Assembly: GCF_041886205.1 (NCBI RefSeq)
Contig: NZ_CP169029.1
DNA from: Escherichia coli
GTDB taxonomy: Bacteria > Pseudomonadota > Gammaproteobacteria > Enterobacterales > Enterobacteriaceae
Length of the DNA: 64,000 nt
Strand: one strand, 5' to 3'
Each line of letters opens with the position of its first letter. The stretch's first letter is position 1. Shown here one piece after another: positions 55,061-63,610 of this stretch. A model generated the notes under the pieces. The model had not been told where the DNA came from and did not search any database. It saw only the letters and a list, made by a program, of their open reading frames with translations. Both the position numbers and the translations under genes were made by a program.

Positions 55061-55552
55061 TTAAAGCAGACCATGTTCGGCAAAGGAGAAAACCTGGTTG
55101 CCACCGACTATCAGATGGTCCGGCACCCGGATATCCACCAGGGCCAGTGCCTGTACCAGACGTTCGGTGATAAGCCGGTCTGCCTTACTGGGTGTGACTT
55201 CACCGGACGGGTGATTGTGTGCCAGCACCACGGCAGCGGCATTGTGATACAGGGCGCGTTTAATCACTTCCCGGGGATGGACTTCCGTGCGGTTGATGGT
55301 GCCGGTGAAGAGGGTTTCACCGGCAATCAGCTGATTCTGGTTGTTCAGATACAGCACCCGGAACTCTTCACGCTCCAGTCCCGCCATGTTCAGAATCAGC
55401 CATTCTCGTGCCGCACGGGTGGAGGTGAAGGCCACGCCGGGTTCATGAAGATGGCGGTCCAGGGTTTTCAGGGCCCGTTGAATGAGACTGCGCTCGCCGG
55501 GCGTCATTTCTCCGGGCAGAAAGGAAAGCTGCTGCATTGTCCCTGCCTCCAT
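55061..55552 (-). CDS. yeeS: RadC-like JAB-domain protein (YeeS/YfjY/YkfG family)
   Basis: JAMM-like HNHPSG motif (…AHNHPSGEVTPSKAD…); 163 aa. Confidence 0.8.
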   Translation of the reverse strand: MEAGTMQQLSFLPGEMTPGERSLIQRALKTLDRHLHEPGVAFTSTRAAREWLILNMAGLEREEFRVLYLNNQNQLIAGETLFTGTINRTEVHPREVIKRALYHNAAAVVLAHNHPSGEVTPSKADRLITERLVQALALVDIRVPDHLIVGGNQVFSFAEHGLL

Positions 55553-56038
55553 TCAGTCGATGATGCGCATAATGGCGCTGCATTCCGGATGCTGCAGGGC
55601 GTAATCCCGCAGCCGGTAATAATGGACCGTCATGGCATAACACTCCGTACGACAGGCGTGATGACTGTACGTCATCAGACAGGCAGCAATGCCGGCGGCT
55701 TCCGGGCTCATTTCAGCGCGGTTGCCGTTCATGGCATTGAACAGTACCCATGTTTCGTCATCATCGTCATCCGGTTCGGGGGCCATAAATGCCCCGCCGT
55801 TGTTCAGAGTGTACAGATTCCAGATACCACCGCAGTAGTCTTCGCACAGACGGTCCATCCAGCCGAAAACACGGGGCTCCAGGGTCACCCACTGTGGAAT
55901 GAGGCCAAAATGCTGCGGCCAGAAGCTGATGCGCTGTTCATCAGGGACTATGGTGGCAACCAACTGAGGCTGGTCATTCCCTGATGCAGCGGTTACGGAA
56001 ACAGAAGATGTGGTGGAATTATGTGAAATGGTTTTCAT
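55553..56038 (-). CDS. Antirestriction protein, KlcA/ArdB family (YfjX-like)
   Basis: 161 aa with the acidic stretch EPDDDDDETW and surrounding sequence resembling YfjX/YeeR-neighbour antirestriction proteins. Confidence 0.7.
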   Translation of the reverse strand: MKTISHNSTTSSVSVTAASGNDQPQLVATIVPDEQRISFWPQHFGLIPQWVTLEPRVFGWMDRLCEDYCGGIWNLYTLNNGGAFMAPEPDDDDDETWVLFNAMNGNRAEMSPEAAGIAACLMTYSHHACRTECYAMTVHYYRLRDYALQHPECSAIMRIID

Positions 56039-56092
56039 GAAATGACTCCTTAAAGGACAAATAAATGCGTGGTTTTCAGGGTAATGGCTGAA

Positions 56093-56911
56093 TCAGCGCA
56101 GGCTCTCCAGCAGGGTTTCCGCCATCACCCACAATGCGCGGTTGAGCTTAATGTCAGTGTCAATGCTGTGAATGGCACGGGTATGGATACGTTTTCCTTT
56201 AGCGCTGCGACCTGAAATTCCGCCTTTCAGCATATTCTCCTGAATGGTCTGATAAGCACTCCACAGGTCCTTACCGTAATCCTCCCGGCGTCGTGGCGTC
56301 AGAATGTCGGCGGTGGTGACGGGCTGATGTTCGTCACCATAACGGTAAGTCAGTGCCGCCTGTGCCAGCGCCTGGCGTGCCGGTGGCGGCAGAATCAGCG
56401 ACTGCATGGCATCACGCTTTTCCTCAATCCGGTCAAAAACCCCCACCACCTCGTAAGCCCCTTCAATGACTCTGTCCACCACATTTCCCCGGTGCGGAAC
56501 ACGCACTTCCCCCAGAGACTGACCACAGACGCATCCGTTCTGGCAGACGAACCTGAAGTAACCCGGCAGCATCTGGTAGCTGGAGGTACCGTCATGAGAG
56601 TTGAGCAGAATAATTTCAGGGACATGTTCTCCGTTTATCTCTCCGGCCCGCCGCAGACGCAGCATGTGTTTTGTGTATCCCCGGCGGCCCGGGTCGCGCA
56701 CACGGGTCTGGCAGGCGAAGAATGGCTGAAAGCCTTCCCGCTGCAGGCTTTCCAGTACGGTGATGGTGGGGATGTACGTATAGTTCTGGCTTCGGGACGT
56801 GTGTTTATCTTCCCCGAAAATCCCCGGCACATAGTGCATCAGTTCTTTGTGTGTCAGCGGACGGTCACGGCGTATCTGGTTCGCATAACCAAAACGACTG
56901 GCTAGTCGCAT
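56093..56911 (-). CDS. DUF932-family protein (YfjQ/YafZ-like)
   Basis: 272 aa, MRLASRFGYANQIRRDRPLTHKELMHYVPGIFGEDKHTSRSQNYTYIPT…; a family that recurs in CP4-type islands. Confidence 0.65.
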   Translation of the reverse strand: MRLASRFGYANQIRRDRPLTHKELMHYVPGIFGEDKHTSRSQNYTYIPTITVLESLQREGFQPFFACQTRVRDPGRRGYTKHMLRLRRAGEINGEHVPEIILLNSHDGTSSYQMLPGYFRFVCQNGCVCGQSLGEVRVPHRGNVVDRVIEGAYEVVGVFDRIEEKRDAMQSLILPPPARQALAQAALTYRYGDEHQPVTTADILTPRRREDYGKDLWSAYQTIQENMLKGGISGRSAKGKRIHTRAIHSIDTDIKLNRALWVMAETLLESLR

Positions 56912-57010
56912 AATTTGCTCCTTATCGGTGGTTAAGATTTACTGGTGTAATAAATGAAAAAGCCACGTCTCCCGGAGAAGACGCGGCCTGATGGGTGAAA
57001 TGAATGACGT

Positions 57011-57244
57011 TTATTGTCTGAGAAGACCGTCACTGGCGAGCCGCGTATTAAGCACCTTTCCGGCATCGGGTTCAGAATTCCGGCAGCACCAGCGTCGCTG
57101 ACCTTCCGCGTTGCGGATAACCCGACGGAAATGCATTCCCGGGTCATCCTGGATAAACACATTGCGGTAAGCGGTTATGACAGCAACCGCCTGCCCGTAT
57201 GAGAAAGATCCTTCAGCCAGGACATACTCTGTGTAACCCGGCAT
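57011..57244 (-). CDS. Small hypothetical protein
   Basis: 77-aa ORF in the island gene string, same strand as its neighbours. Confidence 0.35.
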
Positions 57245-57322
57245 ATCGGTTTTCTCCTGATAAATAAAAAGCCTCTGCCACGCGTTGTGACAGAGGCTGA
57301 AGCATGAAACTGACTTCAGGGA

Positions 57323-57778
57323 TCAGTTAACGTTTTTTCCGGAAACGGTAATCAGCAGTGGATGGTAGTCCTGGGGATTGAAAACCGATAACGGCAGACT
57401 GACACGATGGCCGTTACTTTCTTCAGTTGCTTTAATGATTTCGGTTGTGGCGACATTTTCCACGCACTCCGTTTCCAGAAATGCGTCTGTGGTTCGCGTG
57501 GCATTACTGTCACCAAAAGCTTCCGTTTCCATTTTTCTGGTCACCAGCGTCTGACCATATTTGTCTTTGAGTTGCAGAGTGATGGTGAGGGGGCCAAATC
57601 CTTCATCGTTTCCGCCATTATCCAGCCGGAACTGGTAAGCACAAATATTTCCCGGGAGCCATATCCTATCTGTATTGCGTATACTGATGTAACGTTGATC
57701 CTGTGCCCGGAGTGGGGCAGACCACGTTAACCCCAGAATGAAGGCGGTAATCATGCAGGTTTTGAACAGGTGAATCAT
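57323..57778 (-). CDS. Hypothetical secreted protein (signal peptide)
   Basis: 151 aa with an N-terminal hydrophobic signal ending …WSAPLRAQD. Confidence 0.5.
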   Translation of the reverse strand: MIHLFKTCMITAFILGLTWSAPLRAQDQRYISIRNTDRIWLPGNICAYQFRLDNGGNDEGFGPLTITLQLKDKYGQTLVTRKMETEAFGDSNATRTTDAFLETECVENVATTEIIKATEESNGHRVSLPLSVFNPQDYHPLLITVSGKNVN

Positions 57779-57853
57779 GGTATTTACCTCTCTGAGTCAT
57801 GACGATGACACTGACAAATCAGGTGATAAAGCGTAAAAGGCGCAGAATAGCCG

Positions 57854-60376
57854 TTATGCCGGTAACTCCGGGGGTAATGCTTCTTCCAGTCGGTTAACCA
57901 TATTGCCGAGATGGGATGCATCATATTCCATGACGGGGCGTTGCCTGATGATACTGACCACCAGTGGTTTGATTAACATATTGGTCGCGGCCCGTTGTTG
58001 TATACCGGCGGCGAAAATGATCTCCAGAGCATTCTGATCGATAACACGGGCCAGATTCTCGTTCAGATTTTCAATCTCATGTCCGGTCAGCAGGAAACTG
58101 CCGGCAAGCCATGTCACCTGCTCCTGAATCATTGCCAGAATTTTGACGCGATCTTCTTCAACCAGCGCTCCGGCAATTTTTCCTGATACAGCGGAGGCAA
58201 TCATTCCCCCCAGAACACCGCCAACCACACGCCCTGTCAGTGCACCAAATGGTCCCAGTGGACTGAACAGTATCCCGCCCGCCACTGACCCGACAGCTCC
58301 ACCTGCCACACCGGAAGATGCCACGGCAAGATTCCTGATGAACTGCGTACCGGAGATCCGTCCCCGCAACATTTTGATCATGTCAGGGCCGGTTGTGACA
58401 GCTACCAGTGCCAGAGATGTCACCAGCGTACCCTTCATCACTTTGTTCAGGGCACTGATATTTCCTGCACCGGTCCCCTTCTGAAGAGCCAGTCGGACAG
58501 TCGGGCTGGCAGTCGAAAAATCAATGTGCTTCAGCATACCCTGAACAACACTGAGCCGGTGGAGTTGCTGGGTTGTGACGTAGACAGCCAGTGTGCGGGT
58601 GAAGGTTTTTCCTGCCTGGACAGCAGCTGTCTGCAGGGCAGCATCGCGATCGCCGGTGCTGAGCCAGAAGACCGATGCCGTCAGGGCAAAACTGATCCCT
58701 CCGGCCGCCAGACTGACAACCGAACCCTCGGCAATATCATAAGTGACCGATTCGATGGTCCCGAACCGGGTGATATTACGGGCCTGAGTATAAGTCAGAT
58801 GTCCCCGACGAATCAGCCGGGACGCTTCTGCGGGATCGGTTACACCGGGTACTTTACCTTCGCGGATCTTATTCCTCATGGTTTCAACAGCGCCGGCATA
58901 CTGATCACGGGGGACTTCCAGTTGCATGGGGCCATTATTTCCCATGTAACGATACTGTCCGTTTTGTCCGTCGAATGCCGCACCGACGCTACGGGCTGCA
59001 GTTGAACAATATTTCGTCTGGATTTCTGTTCCGCTGACCAGTCTGTCTGCTCCATTTCTGGCATTATTATCACCGAGGATCCGTGCGTTTTTCAGACGGA
59101 CTCTGTCGACAATATGGTTTCCCCGTTCAGCGGCAAACCCATGTCCCTGCCCTCCGGAAGCAAACATTTTCTCATTTGTACTCCAGGTTTCCGGCAGTTT
59201 CATGAGAATCAGACCATTCGCCGTTGCATCGGAAATAAAGCTGTTGTAAGGGCGTTCATAAATTTCCTGACACAGTGTTTCTGTTTCGCGACAAAGAGAG
59301 GAGCAGTACCATTCCGGATCCGGCTTATGATTTTCCGGGGCATGATGTACTTCTGTCAGCCCGCAGGAGGCACAGATACGAAGCTCATCCACGTGATGGA
59401 ATGATACAAAACGGCGACCTTCTGAAAAGGGATACCAGTCACCGCCGTCCAGGCAACGATCGAGAAAATCGTCATTCGCTTCCGGTGATAAATTCAGGCG
59501 GTTCCGGAAGAGCGTTTTCAGTTCATCAGGTGTGAATGACAGGTTCTCTTTCAACTGTTCGTTAAACCCTGCCATGTTTCTTTCATACCAGGCATTGTTC
59601 AGTAACCAGTTTCCGTCTGCCAGTTCAAATTCCCTCAGCTCTCCCCGGGAAATCCGTTGAGAAATGAGCGTCAGCCAGATGCGCTCCGTCAGTGAGTCAG
59701 GAAGGCTGTAATCGTTTTGCAAACTGGTCAGCCACGATTTACTGTTGAGCACCGGTTGTTCTTCCAGTGTCTGGCTGATGGCACAGGTCAGTTTTTTCAG
59801 CGCCTGGATCTGGCTGGCCGCCCATAGCAGCGTCACTAATGCAGCCAGCCAGTACAACAACCCGCCCCACCACATCAGTGACGGTGAAATATCGTACTGT
59901 AACGCGATCAATGGTGCGCATGCAGAACACGCCATAAGGAAAAAGGCAGTATAAAAACAGCAGTAATACCCGTTAATTTCCTTGCTGATATCTTCTGGTG
60001 TGATCCCGTTCTGCTGAATGTTTTTGATCTGCAGGGGAACAGCCAGCAGACCACCGGCGAGAGCGGTGGTCAGAATAAATTTCACAGAGTCAAAGGTGTG
60101 AGCCTCCAGCGCGATATGTTTACCATCAAGTCCCCACATGAAGCTGATGATCATTCCGGCAATCGTCAGAAATACGCCTGCCAGCCAGCGAATATGGAAC
60201 AACCGGGTTATGCGTTCGGTGATATAGCCAGCCAGTAAGGCCGGGCCGAACAGACACAGCAATATGAGCCCTGCCAGCGCAGAAGCCGTGCTGATTAATG
60301 CTCTGAACAAAAGGCGAAGAATGGCAAATCCTGCGATCAGCAGGATCAGCGCGCCGACTATCTGTAACATAGTCAC
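57854..60376 (-). CDS. yeeR: YeeR-like large inner membrane protein
   Basis: 840 aa: N-terminal transmembrane helices, a Cys-containing central region (…CASCGLTEVHH…WYCSSLC…), and a C-terminal Gly/Ala-rich glycine-zipper-like segment (GGAVGSVAGGILFSPLGPFGALTGRVVGGVLGG). The N-terminus matches YeeR of CP4-44. Confidence 0.7.
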   Translation of the reverse strand: MTMLQIVGALILLIAGFAILRLLFRALISTASALAGLILLCLFGPALLAGYITERITRLFHIRWLAGVFLTIAGMIISFMWGLDGKHIALEAHTFDSVKFILTTALAGGLLAVPLQIKNIQQNGITPEDISKEINGYYCCFYTAFFLMACSACAPLIALQYDISPSLMWWGGLLYWLAALVTLLWAASQIQALKKLTCAISQTLEEQPVLNSKSWLTSLQNDYSLPDSLTERIWLTLISQRISRGELREFELADGNWLLNNAWYERNMAGFNEQLKENLSFTPDELKTLFRNRLNLSPEANDDFLDRCLDGGDWYPFSEGRRFVSFHHVDELRICASCGLTEVHHAPENHKPDPEWYCSSLCRETETLCQEIYERPYNSFISDATANGLILMKLPETWSTNEKMFASGGQGHGFAAERGNHIVDRVRLKNARILGDNNARNGADRLVSGTEIQTKYCSTAARSVGAAFDGQNGQYRYMGNNGPMQLEVPRDQYAGAVETMRNKIREGKVPGVTDPAEASRLIRRGHLTYTQARNITRFGTIESVTYDIAEGSVVSLAAGGISFALTASVFWLSTGDRDAALQTAAVQAGKTFTRTLAVYVTTQQLHRLSVVQGMLKHIDFSTASPTVRLALQKGTGAGNISALNKVMKGTLVTSLALVAVTTGPDMIKMLRGRISGTQFIRNLAVASSGVAGGAVGSVAGGILFSPLGPFGALTGRVVGGVLGGMIASAVSGKIAGALVEEDRVKILAMIQEQVTWLAGSFLLTGHEIENLNENLARVIDQNALEIIFAAGIQQRAATNMLIKPLVVSIIRQRPVMEYDASHLGNMVNRLEEALPPELPA

Positions 60377-60490
60377 TCCGTGATGAATATCATGTTATTG
60401 TTAATGCCAGCGAATGTGGCGTTGAATATCCGTTGCGCCGGTCCGGGTCCCGATCATGATGACCGGGACCACAGAGAGGCGATGGTTCTG

Positions 60491-63400
60491 TCAGAAGGTC
60501 ACATTCAGCGTGGCCTGACCGTTATAGCCTTCAGCGCTGCTGCCGCTGACGCTGTGGACATAACCTGCCTGAACGCCCAGGGTGATATTTTCCCGGACAC
60601 GGGCTTCCAGTCCGGCCTGCAGGTCCAGTGACGTACCATTCTGTGACGGTGAGAACGTCATGTTACTGCCGGCTGCGGCTGTACCCATGCTCATGTCCCC
60701 CCGGGAGCTGAAGGTGCGGATAACAGAAGGCTGTACCCACCAGTTCACCGGCAGTTCACGCACACTGTGTTTGGCACTGCCGCGCAGGGTGTCACGGGAT
60801 GAGGTGCCTTTACCAAAGTTCATATCGTGGTGGCTGCCCAGACGGAAGCCGGCACGCACATGTTGTGCACTGCCATGCCCGAACTTCACATAACCGGCGT
60901 TGTCCTTACCGTCATCCAGGGAAAGTCCCTGCCAGGTATACTGCAGTTGTGGCTCCAGCATCAGGTTGTCAGTGATACTGAAGGGCAGACCGGTTTCCAG
61001 TGAACCCAGCCAGCCCCAACCCCGGGCGCGGAAGTCGTTATTGTCCGTTGACGCTTTCATGCTGTGGCGGGTTCCCAGGGCCACAATGTCAGCCCACAGT
61101 CCGGAGGCGTTGTGTATCAGATTCAGGTATCCGCCCAGGCTGCCGGCATCATCCCGGACCGTGCCGGCACGGGAGCCGTCATCATCCTTAACATCAACGG
61201 AAGAATGGCCAGCAGCACCATATATCCCCGCGGTCACAGACATACCGGCAACCTCTGTTCTCATCAGGTCACCCTCCAGACGGACGAATCCATAGCTGCC
61301 GCTGCTTTCCGGCGTGGCCCCACGGGCAATACCGCCGTTGTTATCGTGACCGAGATGGCCGCCCTGAATGCTGAGACGGACGCTGTTATTTTCACCGTTT
61401 ACACCGGTCTGATGGCTGCGTGAGCCTGCCAGAATCCGGTCATAGTCCATTGCCTGTGTCAGCATGGAGGCATACAGGGGGACTTCTGCACGATAAGCAT
61501 TTTCACTGCGCAGATACCAGCTCTCATCACTGTCCCGGTTGAGGGAGTAGTTAAAGGCACCGGCCTGCAGCTTATTCCCCTGGATAAAGGCCCCTTCCTC
61601 CGTGGTGGCACCGTTAATGGCTTCCACCACCTGAATACCCTTACCGCTGGTCGCCAGCCCCGACGCACTGTTGCCGGCGTTCACCAGGTTCAGGATGGTT
61701 TTTCCGGTTGCCCTGCCACCGTCAATGACCAGTCTGTCAGCATTGTTCTGTGCCATATCCGGGCGTACACGCAGGCTGATGGTGCCATTCTGTCCGTTCA
61801 GGTTTTTCACTTTCAGGGTTGCCGGTACGAACTTCCCTGTGCGGGTGGAGGTGAAATGAATCTGTCCGGCATGGCTGAGGTCATCCACCACCGACTGCAC
61901 CGTGGCGTTATCGGGAATATTCCAGGTGGCACCAGAGGCGAGAGTGACATTCGTGGGGTCAATGGCACCGTTCAGCACAGTGCTGCCGGTCAGCTTCAGG
62001 GCTGTACCGCGCTGAGCAATGACATCCGTGGTGACGGTACTGTCGTTCAGCGTCAGCGTGCCTTCATTCAGGTTGACGGCTTTCTGGGTGAGTGTGGTGT
62101 TGCTGACAGTGAGTGTGCCACTTCCTGATTTTTCCACGCTGCCGTTACCGGTGAGAGAGCCTCCCTGCAGGAGTGCATCGCCTTCACGGATGGTCAGGGT
62201 ATCGTTGTTCACCGTCTTCCCGGAAAGGGTAAGTATGGCGCCGTTATTCAGCGTGGTGGTGCCCGCCAGTGTGCCGCCCCTGGCGGTGAACAGTCCGCCA
62301 TTTACCGTGGTATCCGTGGCCGTATCACCGGCGTTCAGCGTGAATGAACTGCCTTTTTCCAGCATCAGGGCATCCGCCTGACCACCTCCGATACTGAATG
62401 CCTTTCCGTCGCTCCGGGTACCACTGACAGCGGCACCGGAATCGGCCAGCAGTACACCGCCATTTCCCATGGATACGGTGGTGGCGGTGCCACCGTTGCG
62501 GACATCCAGCGTTCCGCCATCATCCACGCGGGTATTAGTGGCTGTGTGTCCGGTCAGCACATCCAGGCGTCCGCCATTTTCCAGTACGACATTATCAGCT
62601 TTACCCTCCACAACAGAGAATGCTCCCAGGCGGTTTATGCCGGTAACGGTTGCAGCCGTACTGGTAACCAGTGCGCCGCCCTGCTTCAGGGTGACATTCG
62701 TGGCTGTACCACCGGCGTCCACCTGCAGTCTGCCCTTCTGATTAACGGTGGTATTCCCGGCCACACCCCCGTTTTTGACAATCTGCCAGCCGTCACTGTT
62801 TACAACAGTGCCAGACGCCGTACCGCCGTTGTGCACATACTGGTACCCCCCATTCAGCGTGGTATCCAGTGCGTGACCATGTACAGTCTGGTCGCCGCCG
62901 GCATAAACCACAGTGGTATTTGCCGTTCCTTCAGCAGCCACAATCTGACGACCATTTTTATTGATGGTGGTGCGTACGGCATCTCCGTAGACGGTCTGCC
63001 CGGTATCACCATTTTCCGCATCCGGTCCCCCTTCCGCGCCGGTATTCACAACCGTGTCGGTTGCCACTGCGCCGGATTTGATGGCCTGCCAGCCCTTCTC
63101 ATTAATGACGGTACCCGTTGCAATCCCGCCTTCATGTACCCACTGCTCACCGCCGTTCAGAGTGGTGTTCACTGCCTGCCCCTGAAGGCTCTGTCCGCCT
63201 CCGGCACTGATAACCGTGTCTGAAACGCTTCCTCCGGCATTCACTCTCTGAAGACCACCACCGGTGACAGTAGTGTTGTTGGCGATACCGCCATTTTGTA
63301 TCCATTGTCCGCCGGTATTGGCCTCGTTATCCGGCCCATACTCCAGACCGGTACTGATGGTCATTCCGTTGGCCGTACCGAGGACAATCTGGTTGTCATG

Positions 63401-63610
63401 ATTTGTCAGTGTTCCGTCGTTCACGGTTTCTCCCGCCTGTACAACCTTGTCAGCAGCCAGTGCCGGGACTGATGTGACAGCAGCAAGAGACAGCGCAACC
63501 GCCACACCGGCGCCTTTTCCCCGTGAGCGGGCCAGTTCGGAGGCCACCACCAGGGTGCCCGTAATGTGATTCCATACCAGCCTGTAGCTGGTGTTCAGAT
63601 GTCGTTTCAT
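60491..63610 (-). CDS. flu: Antigen 43 self-associating autotransporter adhesin
   Basis: MKRHLNTSYRLVWNHITGTLVVASELARSRGKG… extended signal peptide, repetitive beta-helical passenger, C-terminal beta-barrel ending …GYNGQATLNVTF. Start at the internal Met of ORF 60491-63685. Confidence 0.95.
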   Translation of the reverse strand: MKRHLNTSYRLVWNHITGTLVVASELARSRGKGAGVAVALSLAAVTSVPALAADKVVQAGETVNDGTLTNHDNQIVLGTANGMTISTGLEYGPDNEANTGGQWIQNGGIANNTTVTGGGLQRVNAGGSVSDTVISAGGGQSLQGQAVNTTLNGGEQWVHEGGIATGTVINEKGWQAIKSGAVATDTVVNTGAEGGPDAENGDTGQTVYGDAVRTTINKNGRQIVAAEGTANTTVVYAGGDQTVHGHALDTTLNGGYQYVHNGGTASGTVVNSDGWQIVKNGGVAGNTTVNQKGRLQVDAGGTATNVTLKQGGALVTSTAATVTGINRLGAFSVVEGKADNVVLENGGRLDVLTGHTATNTRVDDGGTLDVRNGGTATTVSMGNGGVLLADSGAAVSGTRSDGKAFSIGGGQADALMLEKGSSFTLNAGDTATDTTVNGGLFTARGGTLAGTTTLNNGAILTLSGKTVNNDTLTIREGDALLQGGSLTGNGSVEKSGSGTLTVSNTTLTQKAVNLNEGTLTLNDSTVTTDVIAQRGTALKLTGSTVLNGAIDPTNVTLASGATWNIPDNATVQSVVDDLSHAGQIHFTSTRTGKFVPATLKVKNLNGQNGTISLRVRPDMAQNNADRLVIDGGRATGKTILNLVNAGNSASGLATSGKGIQVVEAINGATTEEGAFIQGNKLQAGAFNYSLNRDSDESWYLRSENAYRAEVPLYASMLTQAMDYDRILAGSRSHQTGVNGENNSVRLSIQGGHLGHDNNGGIARGATPESSGSYGFVRLEGDLMRTEVAGMSVTAGIYGAAGHSSVDVKDDDGSRAGTVRDDAGSLGGYLNLIHNASGLWADIVALGTRHSMKASTDNNDFRARGWGWLGSLETGLPFSITDNLMLEPQLQYTWQGLSLDDGKDNAGYVKFGHGSAQHVRAGFRLGSHHDMNFGKGTSSRDTLRGSAKHSVRELPVNWWVQPSVIRTFSSRGDMSMGTAAAGSNMTFSPSQNGTSLDLQAGLEARVRENITLGVQAGYVHSVSGSSAEGYNGQATLNVTF

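Follow-up and report, generated by a model that had tools for sequence, protein, structure and literature searches.

The gene yeeR follows the gene for antigen 43 (Ag43) in Escherichia coli, and its function was given as unknown when the operon was described (PMC4807369); in 2024 it was still among the uncharacterized genes of K-12 (PMC11551758). Here we analyze the yeeR allele found in a stretch of 64,000 nucleotides (nt) of E. coli DNA (assembly GCF_041886205.1, contig NZ_CP169029.1), called the window below, to which all positions refer. The yeeR coding sequence occupies positions 57854 to 60370 on the minus strand and encodes 838 amino acids (aa) and a stop codon. Upstream on the same strand lies agn43 (flu; 60491 to 63610), recognized from the list of open reading frames (ORFs) and from the RefSeq annotation of a locus that is 99.7% identical over the matched span, and the two genes are separated by a spacer of 114 nt. 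Downstream, also on the minus strand, lies the annotated irmA gene (57323 to 57778), followed by a terminator-like hairpin (57270 to 57298, minus strand) with a 12-bp stem and a T-run. This hairpin was the only strong one found in a terminator scan of the window, and it marks the downstream end of the transcription unit. The gene order agn43, yeeR, irmA and the 100% identity to K-12 yeeR over nt 1 to 1527 identify the gene as the yeeR ortholog.

The three genes have been shown by reverse transcription-PCR to be co-transcribed and to be repressed by OxyR (PMC4807369), flu and yeeR are upregulated together in oxyR and gcvB mutants of K-12 (PMC8614746), and irmA in strain 042 also possesses a promoter of its own (PMC9431211). 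The agn43-yeeR spacer contains a 7-bp perfect inverted repeat, GGTCCCG-N10-CGGGACC (60446 to 60470, minus strand), that lacks a T-run and is kept in sequence type 131 (ST131; locus L009); it could affect the processing or stability of the mRNA or attenuate transcription.

The original prediction held that yeeR is always paired with Ag43 in these islands. Seen from yeeR this is nearly absolute within E. coli, where the 5' end of yeeR was found in 2,181 genomes and the intact junction between the 3' end of agn43 and the 5' end of yeeR in 2,184. The converse does not apply, as the 3' end of Ag43/Cah was present in 4,122 genomes and yeeR adjoined it in about half of these (2,184 of 4,122), with some islands passing directly from Ag43/Cah to DUF905. 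Nor does the pairing extend beyond E. coli, where a sister copy of the gene follows PDC-M09 and distant homologs stand alone.

Intact and truncated yeeR alleles

The uninterrupted ORF on the minus strand runs from 57854 to 60376 and would give 840 aa if counted from the GTG at 60376. The ATG at 60370, two codons further in, is most likely the true start because the sequence shows a GGAG ribosome-binding box (60376 to 60379, minus strand) ahead of it at a spacing of 5 nt and because RefSeq annotates the same 838-aa protein (WP_001315618.1, identical in two strains). All residue numbers below are counted from this ATG. The transmembrane N terminus, Cys region and glycine-zipper tail that had been predicted for the ORF, for which no strand had been given, are all present. 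An origin of the ORF by an assembly frameshift that fused two genes is ruled out, since at least 80% of yeeR is covered at 97 to 100% identity in 1,800 of 5,426 complete E. coli genomes (about a third) and since homologs of 820 to 850 aa with the same layout are found in Pseudomonas, Shewanella, Methylomonas, Dyella, Cupriavidus and other Gamma- and Betaproteobacteria. Comparison with a 68%-identical copy from Enterobacter gave a nonsynonymous divergence (pN) of 0.20 and a saturated synonymous divergence (pS) of 0.76, and yeeR is therefore under purifying selection; of all regions of the protein, the endonuclease-like domain described below had the lowest pN.

The gene in K-12 is the same gene in the same position after agn43, and its product had been described in the original prediction as a roughly 510-aa protein from a truncated allele. 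Both points were borne out. K-12 YeeR (WP_001350525.1) has 510 aa and consists of residues 1 to 507 followed by three foreign residues, E-E-R, and a stop, so that residues 508 to 838 are lacking; at the DNA level, K-12 yeeR equals bases 1 to 1527 of the full gene at 100% identity, where the match ends. The cause is a deletion of 3,336 nt, corresponding to window positions 55514 to 58849, in the K-12 CP4-44 island, as established by a BLASTN alignment of the window with the K-12 locus, by the junction sequences and by translation. It removes yeeR codons 508 to 838, irmA, DUF905, DUF932, an antirestriction gene and the 5' end of yeeS and fuses codon 507 of yeeR to what is left of yeeS. The protein thereby loses the end of the endonuclease-like domain, the entire glycine-zipper module and the tail. 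Only CCCGG is common to both edges of the deletion, and no longer homology was found at the edges that would explain the breakpoint as a repeat. The allele in the window is thus the intact one, carried as cargo of CP4-44-type integrative islands, and the K-12 gene is a deletion remnant. The truncation of K-12 yeeR (PMC4807369, 2016; PMC6480617, 2019) and the agn43-yeeR-irmA operon are already known; the domain map presented below is new.

Many partial alleles occur in E. coli, several of which arose as independent deletions. The K-12-type junction was found in up to 385 genomes, and in ST131 strains the first 1,393 nt of yeeR are missing, with this junction in up to 414 genomes (locus L009, 6997 to 8130). 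EC958, the ST131 strain used to define the operon, may also carry the 5' deletion. Four different in-frame internal deletions (P0003, P0004, P0006 and P0021, with P0004 seen on 38 contigs) remove the zinc ribbon, the endonuclease-like core or both, and insertions of insertion sequence (IS) elements also occur. Either a burden imposed by the full-length protein or simple decay could account for these alleles. Two fusions, of YeeR residues 1 to 507 to YeeS (P0018) and to DUF932 (P0020), share the left breakpoint of the K-12 deletion at codon 507 (GGTAAAGTA/CCCGG, at about window position 58850). Each comes from a single short-read assembly, and we do not rely on this breakpoint, which may be a deletion hotspot or an assembly artifact.

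Domain architecture of YeeR and the YeeR_C family

The three-part architecture first proposed, with a transmembrane N terminus, a Cys-containing center and a glycine-zipper C terminus, is right as far as it goes and is incomplete, since further domains were found. An AlphaFold model of the full-length protein has a predicted local distance difference test score (pLDDT) of 77.8. Residues 1 to 186 (59813 to 60370, minus strand) form a hydrophobic region in which a Kyte-Doolittle scan and the AlphaFold helices predict 5 to 6 membrane helices; conservation of this region is low and it is confined to the YeeR subfamily, a hydrophobic segment N-terminal of the conserved module being absent from 48 of 71 distant members of the family. 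It is followed by tandem winged-helix domains (residues 205 to 330; 59381 to 59758, minus strand) of the SelB-like type, in which a three-helix bundle with a beta-hairpin wing occurs twice, and by a zinc-ribbon-like Cys cluster (residues 333 to 367; 59270 to 59374, minus strand). The cluster contains the pairs C333-x2-C336 and C356-x3-C360 together with C367, all five of which are invariant in 47 full-length homologs. The conserved CxxC and CxxxC pairs correspond to a Cys4 knuckle, for which the local pLDDT is just 56 to 81 and zinc binding only putative.

The most conserved part of YeeR is an alpha/beta domain of approximately 130 aa (residues 405 to 535; 58766 to 59158, minus strand) that is restriction endonuclease-like and is modeled with a pLDDT of 88.7. 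Its match to the restriction-endonuclease fold is weak but consistent. The invariant residues are E415, D442, Q451-x-K453, E485-V-P487 and D489, and E415, D442, Q451, K453 and E485 are kept across 71 sequences that share only approximately 30% identity. In the model, helix 1 contains E415, D442 immediately precedes strand 2, strand 3 ends with Q451-x-K453, and E485 belongs to a later strand. Compared with the PD-(D/E)xK motif, D442 and K453 are invariant and correctly placed and the middle residue is an invariant Gln (Q451). The modeled geometry suggests a PD-(D/E)xK site in which Gln replaces the second acidic residue, and the invariant E415 and E485 could be the source of a second carboxylate. 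We compared the domain with the PD-(D/E)xK nucleases CdiA-CT of Burkholderia pseudomallei (4g6v), Hjc, NgoMIV/Cfr10I and HamA; unlike these, YeeR carries Gln for the second acidic residue and is fused to membrane modules, and it shares no sequence similarity with them.

A search with the domain profile recovered PF27347 proteins only, so that it made no connection to known nucleases by sequence. When PDB sequences were searched with profiles of the whole protein and of the domain, no relative was found; a short match to L7Ae in this search (E value of 0.06) looks like chance. A Pfam scan of 62 domain sequences gave nothing meaningful, Pfam and NCBIfam had no real match to the whole of YeeR, and Foldseek found no significant match in the PDB.

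The endonuclease-like domain is followed by a conserved hydrophobic module, delimited by the hydropathy scan (residues 546 to 737; 58160 to 58735, minus strand), that consists, in this order, of a hydrophobic helix (residues 546 to 572), amphipathic helices and a glycine zipper (residues 683 to 737; window positions 58160 to 58324). The zipper is a hydrophobic stretch with eight overlapping GxxxG motifs in residues 680 to 740, among which G694, G698, G713 and G717 are invariant. The model has a pLDDT below 50 at residues 671 to 682 and 717 to 737. The module has weak matches to the C19orf12 family and to the glycine zippers of tape-measure proteins, and in PHROGs, YeeR matched only such zipper regions of tape-measure proteins. 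The protein ends in a helical region defined from the secondary structure of the model (residues 738 to 831; 57878 to 58159, minus strand), in which D740 and R811 are invariant.

An exhaustive search found 1,199 matching clusters, and most of the distant ones among them align only to residues 400 to 815. This unit is the Pfam family YeeR_C (PF27347), which has no assigned function and spans the endonuclease-like domain and the C-terminal module; in precomputed annotation, it is assigned to cluster P0001, which is 99% identical, and to all homologs found. The distant members are 476 to 1,203 aa long and their N termini vary, with Sel1 repeats in 6 of 56 sampled and also TPR, zinc ribbons and TerB. 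In contrast to this variability, all 71 distant members examined have at least one hydrophobic segment in the C-terminal module, and 70 of the 71 have at least two. A scan of one genome per species found a relative in 259 species, from Proteobacteria, Clostridia, Selenomonas, Campylobacter, Fusobacterium, Spirochaetes, Lentisphaerae and Chlamydiae. A literature search for YeeR_C, PF27347 and PDC-M09 returned nothing relevant.

Gene neighborhoods and the PDC-M09 cassette

A sister copy of yeeR with 68% identity is present in Enterobacter, in Serratia and in 7 E. coli genomes, where it lies in a cassette of genes on one strand that are separated by spacers of approximately 35 nt. The cassette begins with a WYL regulator, continues with PDC-M09A (281 aa; E value of 1e-119) and PDC-M09B (481 aa; E value of 2e-214) and has the YeeR-like gene (840 aa) last, with Dnd or SIR2 genes downstream. 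Three such cassettes were delimited (L021, 6753 to 12520; L099, 9029 to 14791; L011, 4761 to 10523), and in E. coli PSJ-29 the cassette occupies positions 3601439 to 3607201 of NZ_AP027639.1. PDC-M09, which is a candidate system in PADLOC, may have the YeeR-like gene as its third gene; this gene lies directly downstream of bona fide PDC-M09A and PDC-M09B genes on the same strand. PDC-M09B and YeeR_C are also alike in the order of their elements, with an FAGE helix, the motif PADYxIDGxxVQSKF (GADRLVxGxxIQTKY in YeeR_C) and a glycine-rich hydrophobic region, and one YeeR_C member (P0215) matches the PDC-M09B models with E values of 5e-13 and 3e-8. YeeR itself differs in giving only partial matches to these models (E values of 5e-6, at 23 bits, and 4e-5) and does not qualify as a PDC-M09B; the true PDC-M09B is encoded by a gene of its own, which precedes that for the sister YeeR. 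Neither PDC-M09A nor PDC-M09B was found in the window, and a search for a PDC-M09B remnant upstream of E. coli yeeR found none. A YeeR homolog in Serratia lies downstream of an IrmA-like gene and a PDC-M09B remnant.

Elsewhere the surroundings are diverse. The homologs in Pseudomonas, Methylomonas, Dyella and Deefgea are stand-alone genes, and the neighbors of homologs include RES-Xre, HicAB, HepT-MNT, a CAP12-type TIR protein, IS elements and integrases, or ordinary genes. Apparent tandem paralogs turned out to be mostly fragments of one gene, and a general enrichment in defense islands was not evident in Pfam and PADLOC scans of 150 neighbors. At eight loci (L072, 9860 to 14042; L075, L081, L094, L054, L056, L090 and L024), the YeeR_C gene is adjoined, often with an overlap, by a protein of a kinase group, defined by BLAST clustering with a Ser/Thr-kinase, DnaJ_C and Sel1-repeat protein at L024; a Pfam kinase domain was found in two scanned members. 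A TerB-domain protein is encoded directly upstream of the YeeR_C gene at four Clostridia loci (L045, L050, L070 and L071).

In the window, the yeeR island adjoins a complete type I Wadjet system (43920 to 50605, plus strand), which is located between glcA and the island. All four components gave full-length PADLOC matches: JetA (498 aa; E value of 1e-272), JetB (254 aa; 1e-116), JetC (1,095 aa; 0) and JetD (394 aa; 5e-193). The closest annotated strain has parts of this system as pseudogenes. A DUF4942 gene (51096 to 53025, minus strand) at the island's distal end is split by an IS110-like ISSfl8 transposase gene (51662 to 52666), which leaves fragments at about 51096 to 51380 and 52738 to 53025.

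Possible roles of YeeR

The reading that we favor, with a probability of about 0.4, is that YeeR is tethered to the membrane, binds or cuts nucleic acid and serves in conflicts with foreign DNA. According to the model, YeeR would be anchored in the inner membrane through the N-terminal bundle of 5 to 6 helices. The middle part, with its two winged-helix domains, Cys4 zinc-ribbon-like knuckle and domain of the restriction-endonuclease fold, is probably cytoplasmic, and the latter domain would run straight into the second hydrophobic module, the glycine zipper, and the helical tail. The domain and the module (YeeR_C) would constitute the unit that is conserved across phyla, to which an interchangeable N-terminal part is attached. 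YeeR may then work at the membrane's inner face, where it would bind or cut nucleic acid, and act against incoming DNA, in defense against or exclusion of phages or plasmids, and its expression would be tied to the Dam/OxyR phase switch of agn43.

This proposal draws on the weak fold match, the invariant residues and guilt by association, and its weakest step is the one to an action on nucleic acid at the membrane in a conflict with phages or plasmids. We count in its favor the homologs near RES-Xre, HicAB, HepT-MNT, TIR, IS elements and integrases, the PDC-M09 cassette, the match of P0215, the adjoining Wadjet system and the deletion alleles. Shedu/SduA-type defense nucleases, which have a constant C-terminal effector and interchangeable N-terminal parts, some of them transmembrane, follow the same organizational logic. 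YeeR differs from them in that it matches no PADLOC or Pfam model of these systems and in that its membrane module is C-terminal and within the conserved unit.

Several results weigh against the proposal. No sequence method (Pfam, NCBIfam, PDB-profile and domain-profile searches) ties the domain to any nuclease family, and its motif carries Q at a position canonically occupied by D or E. PDC-M09 is itself only a computational defense candidate, and the direct similarity between YeeR and PDC-M09B is not significant (BLASTP; hhalign probability of 3%). An all-against-all BLAST of the neighbors at 78 loci found no universal partner gene, and the 150 neighbors scanned at 26 loci were spread over 137 Pfam families, which included many housekeeping ones and gave only few and scattered defense-type matches. 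A set of 2.9 million viral contigs yielded just 6 relatives, and the deletion alleles could be neutral decay.

The conserved unit can also be read the other way around, with the membrane module as the active part. YeeR would then be an effector of the abortive-infection type, in which the domain senses or binds a ligand or nucleic acid without cutting it and the glycine zipper, once triggered, opens the membrane. The module partners the domain in all 71 members and is similar to segments that insert into membranes in tape-measure proteins, Rhs prePAAR regions and LeoB/LeoBC; Q stands in place of the canonical acidic residue, the variable N termini (Sel1 and TPR) look sensor-like, and the repeated loss of the central region in E. 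coli would fit a costly or toxic protein. However, five invariant polar residues are placed as in a catalytic site, which is beyond the usual needs of binding, and we consider this explanation unlikely.

Even more doubtful is a role that has nothing to do with foreign DNA, in which YeeR would be a membrane protein for signaling or stress responses, such as a kinase- or TerB-linked response to envelope stress. The neighbor of the kinase, DnaJ_C and Sel1 group at eight loci, with its two Pfam-confirmed kinases, and TerB upstream at four would fit such a role, as would the many homologs located among housekeeping genes such as those for TonB receptors and cellulose synthesis. These partners are, however, found in only approximately 10% of loci, mostly in Firmicutes, and none is present at the E. 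coli locus, and domains of the winged-helix, zinc-ribbon and endonuclease-fold types speak for nucleic acid.

The operon suggests an accessory factor for the biogenesis of Ag43, for aggregation or for the release of IrmA, given the co-transcription with agn43 and irmA, the derepression in oxyR mutants (PMC4807369, PMC8614746) and the near-constant position of yeeR next to agn43 in E. coli. This is now highly improbable and largely refuted: a K-12 agn43 mutant without functional agn43, yeeR and irmA still releases IrmA (PMC4807369), Ag43 works in K-12 and ST131 despite their truncated yeeR, yeeR is missing from about half of the Ag43/Cah loci, homologs outside E. coli have no Ag43 neighbor, and the predicted domains are cytoplasmic and of a nucleic-acid type. 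That YeeR has no function and is merely carried along in E. coli islands while it decays, as the many partial alleles (K-12 type in at most 385 genomes, ST131 type in at most 414, in-frame deletions and IS insertions) might suggest, is the least credible, in view of the full-length coverage at 97 to 100% identity kept in 1,800 genomes, the low pN relative to the saturated pS against the sister copy, lowest in the endonuclease-like domain, and the conservation of the module in Proteobacteria, Firmicutes, Campylobacter, Fusobacteria and others.

In conclusion, about one in three complete E. coli genomes carries an intact yeeR, which shares a transcript with the gene for a major phase-variable adhesin. 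The domain map leads to concrete hypotheses and to candidate mutants in E415, D442, K453 and the four Cys residues. K-12 and ST131 are natural yeeR mutants and are unsuited to judging the function of the intact gene, and the link to PDC-M09 makes it worthwhile to consider that cassette together with its third gene. A more far-reaching version of the proposal, which we regard as quite unlikely, is that YeeR_C proteins form a hitherto unrecognized class of immunity or exclusion factor encoded by one gene, with a domain of the restriction-endonuclease fold embedded in a glycine-zipper membrane module. Such a factor would attack DNA during its entry at the inner membrane, would be co-switched with Ag43 in E. 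coli and would have been lost in K-12 and ST131. If this were true, the aggregating cells in which Ag43 is switched on would also be the protected cells.

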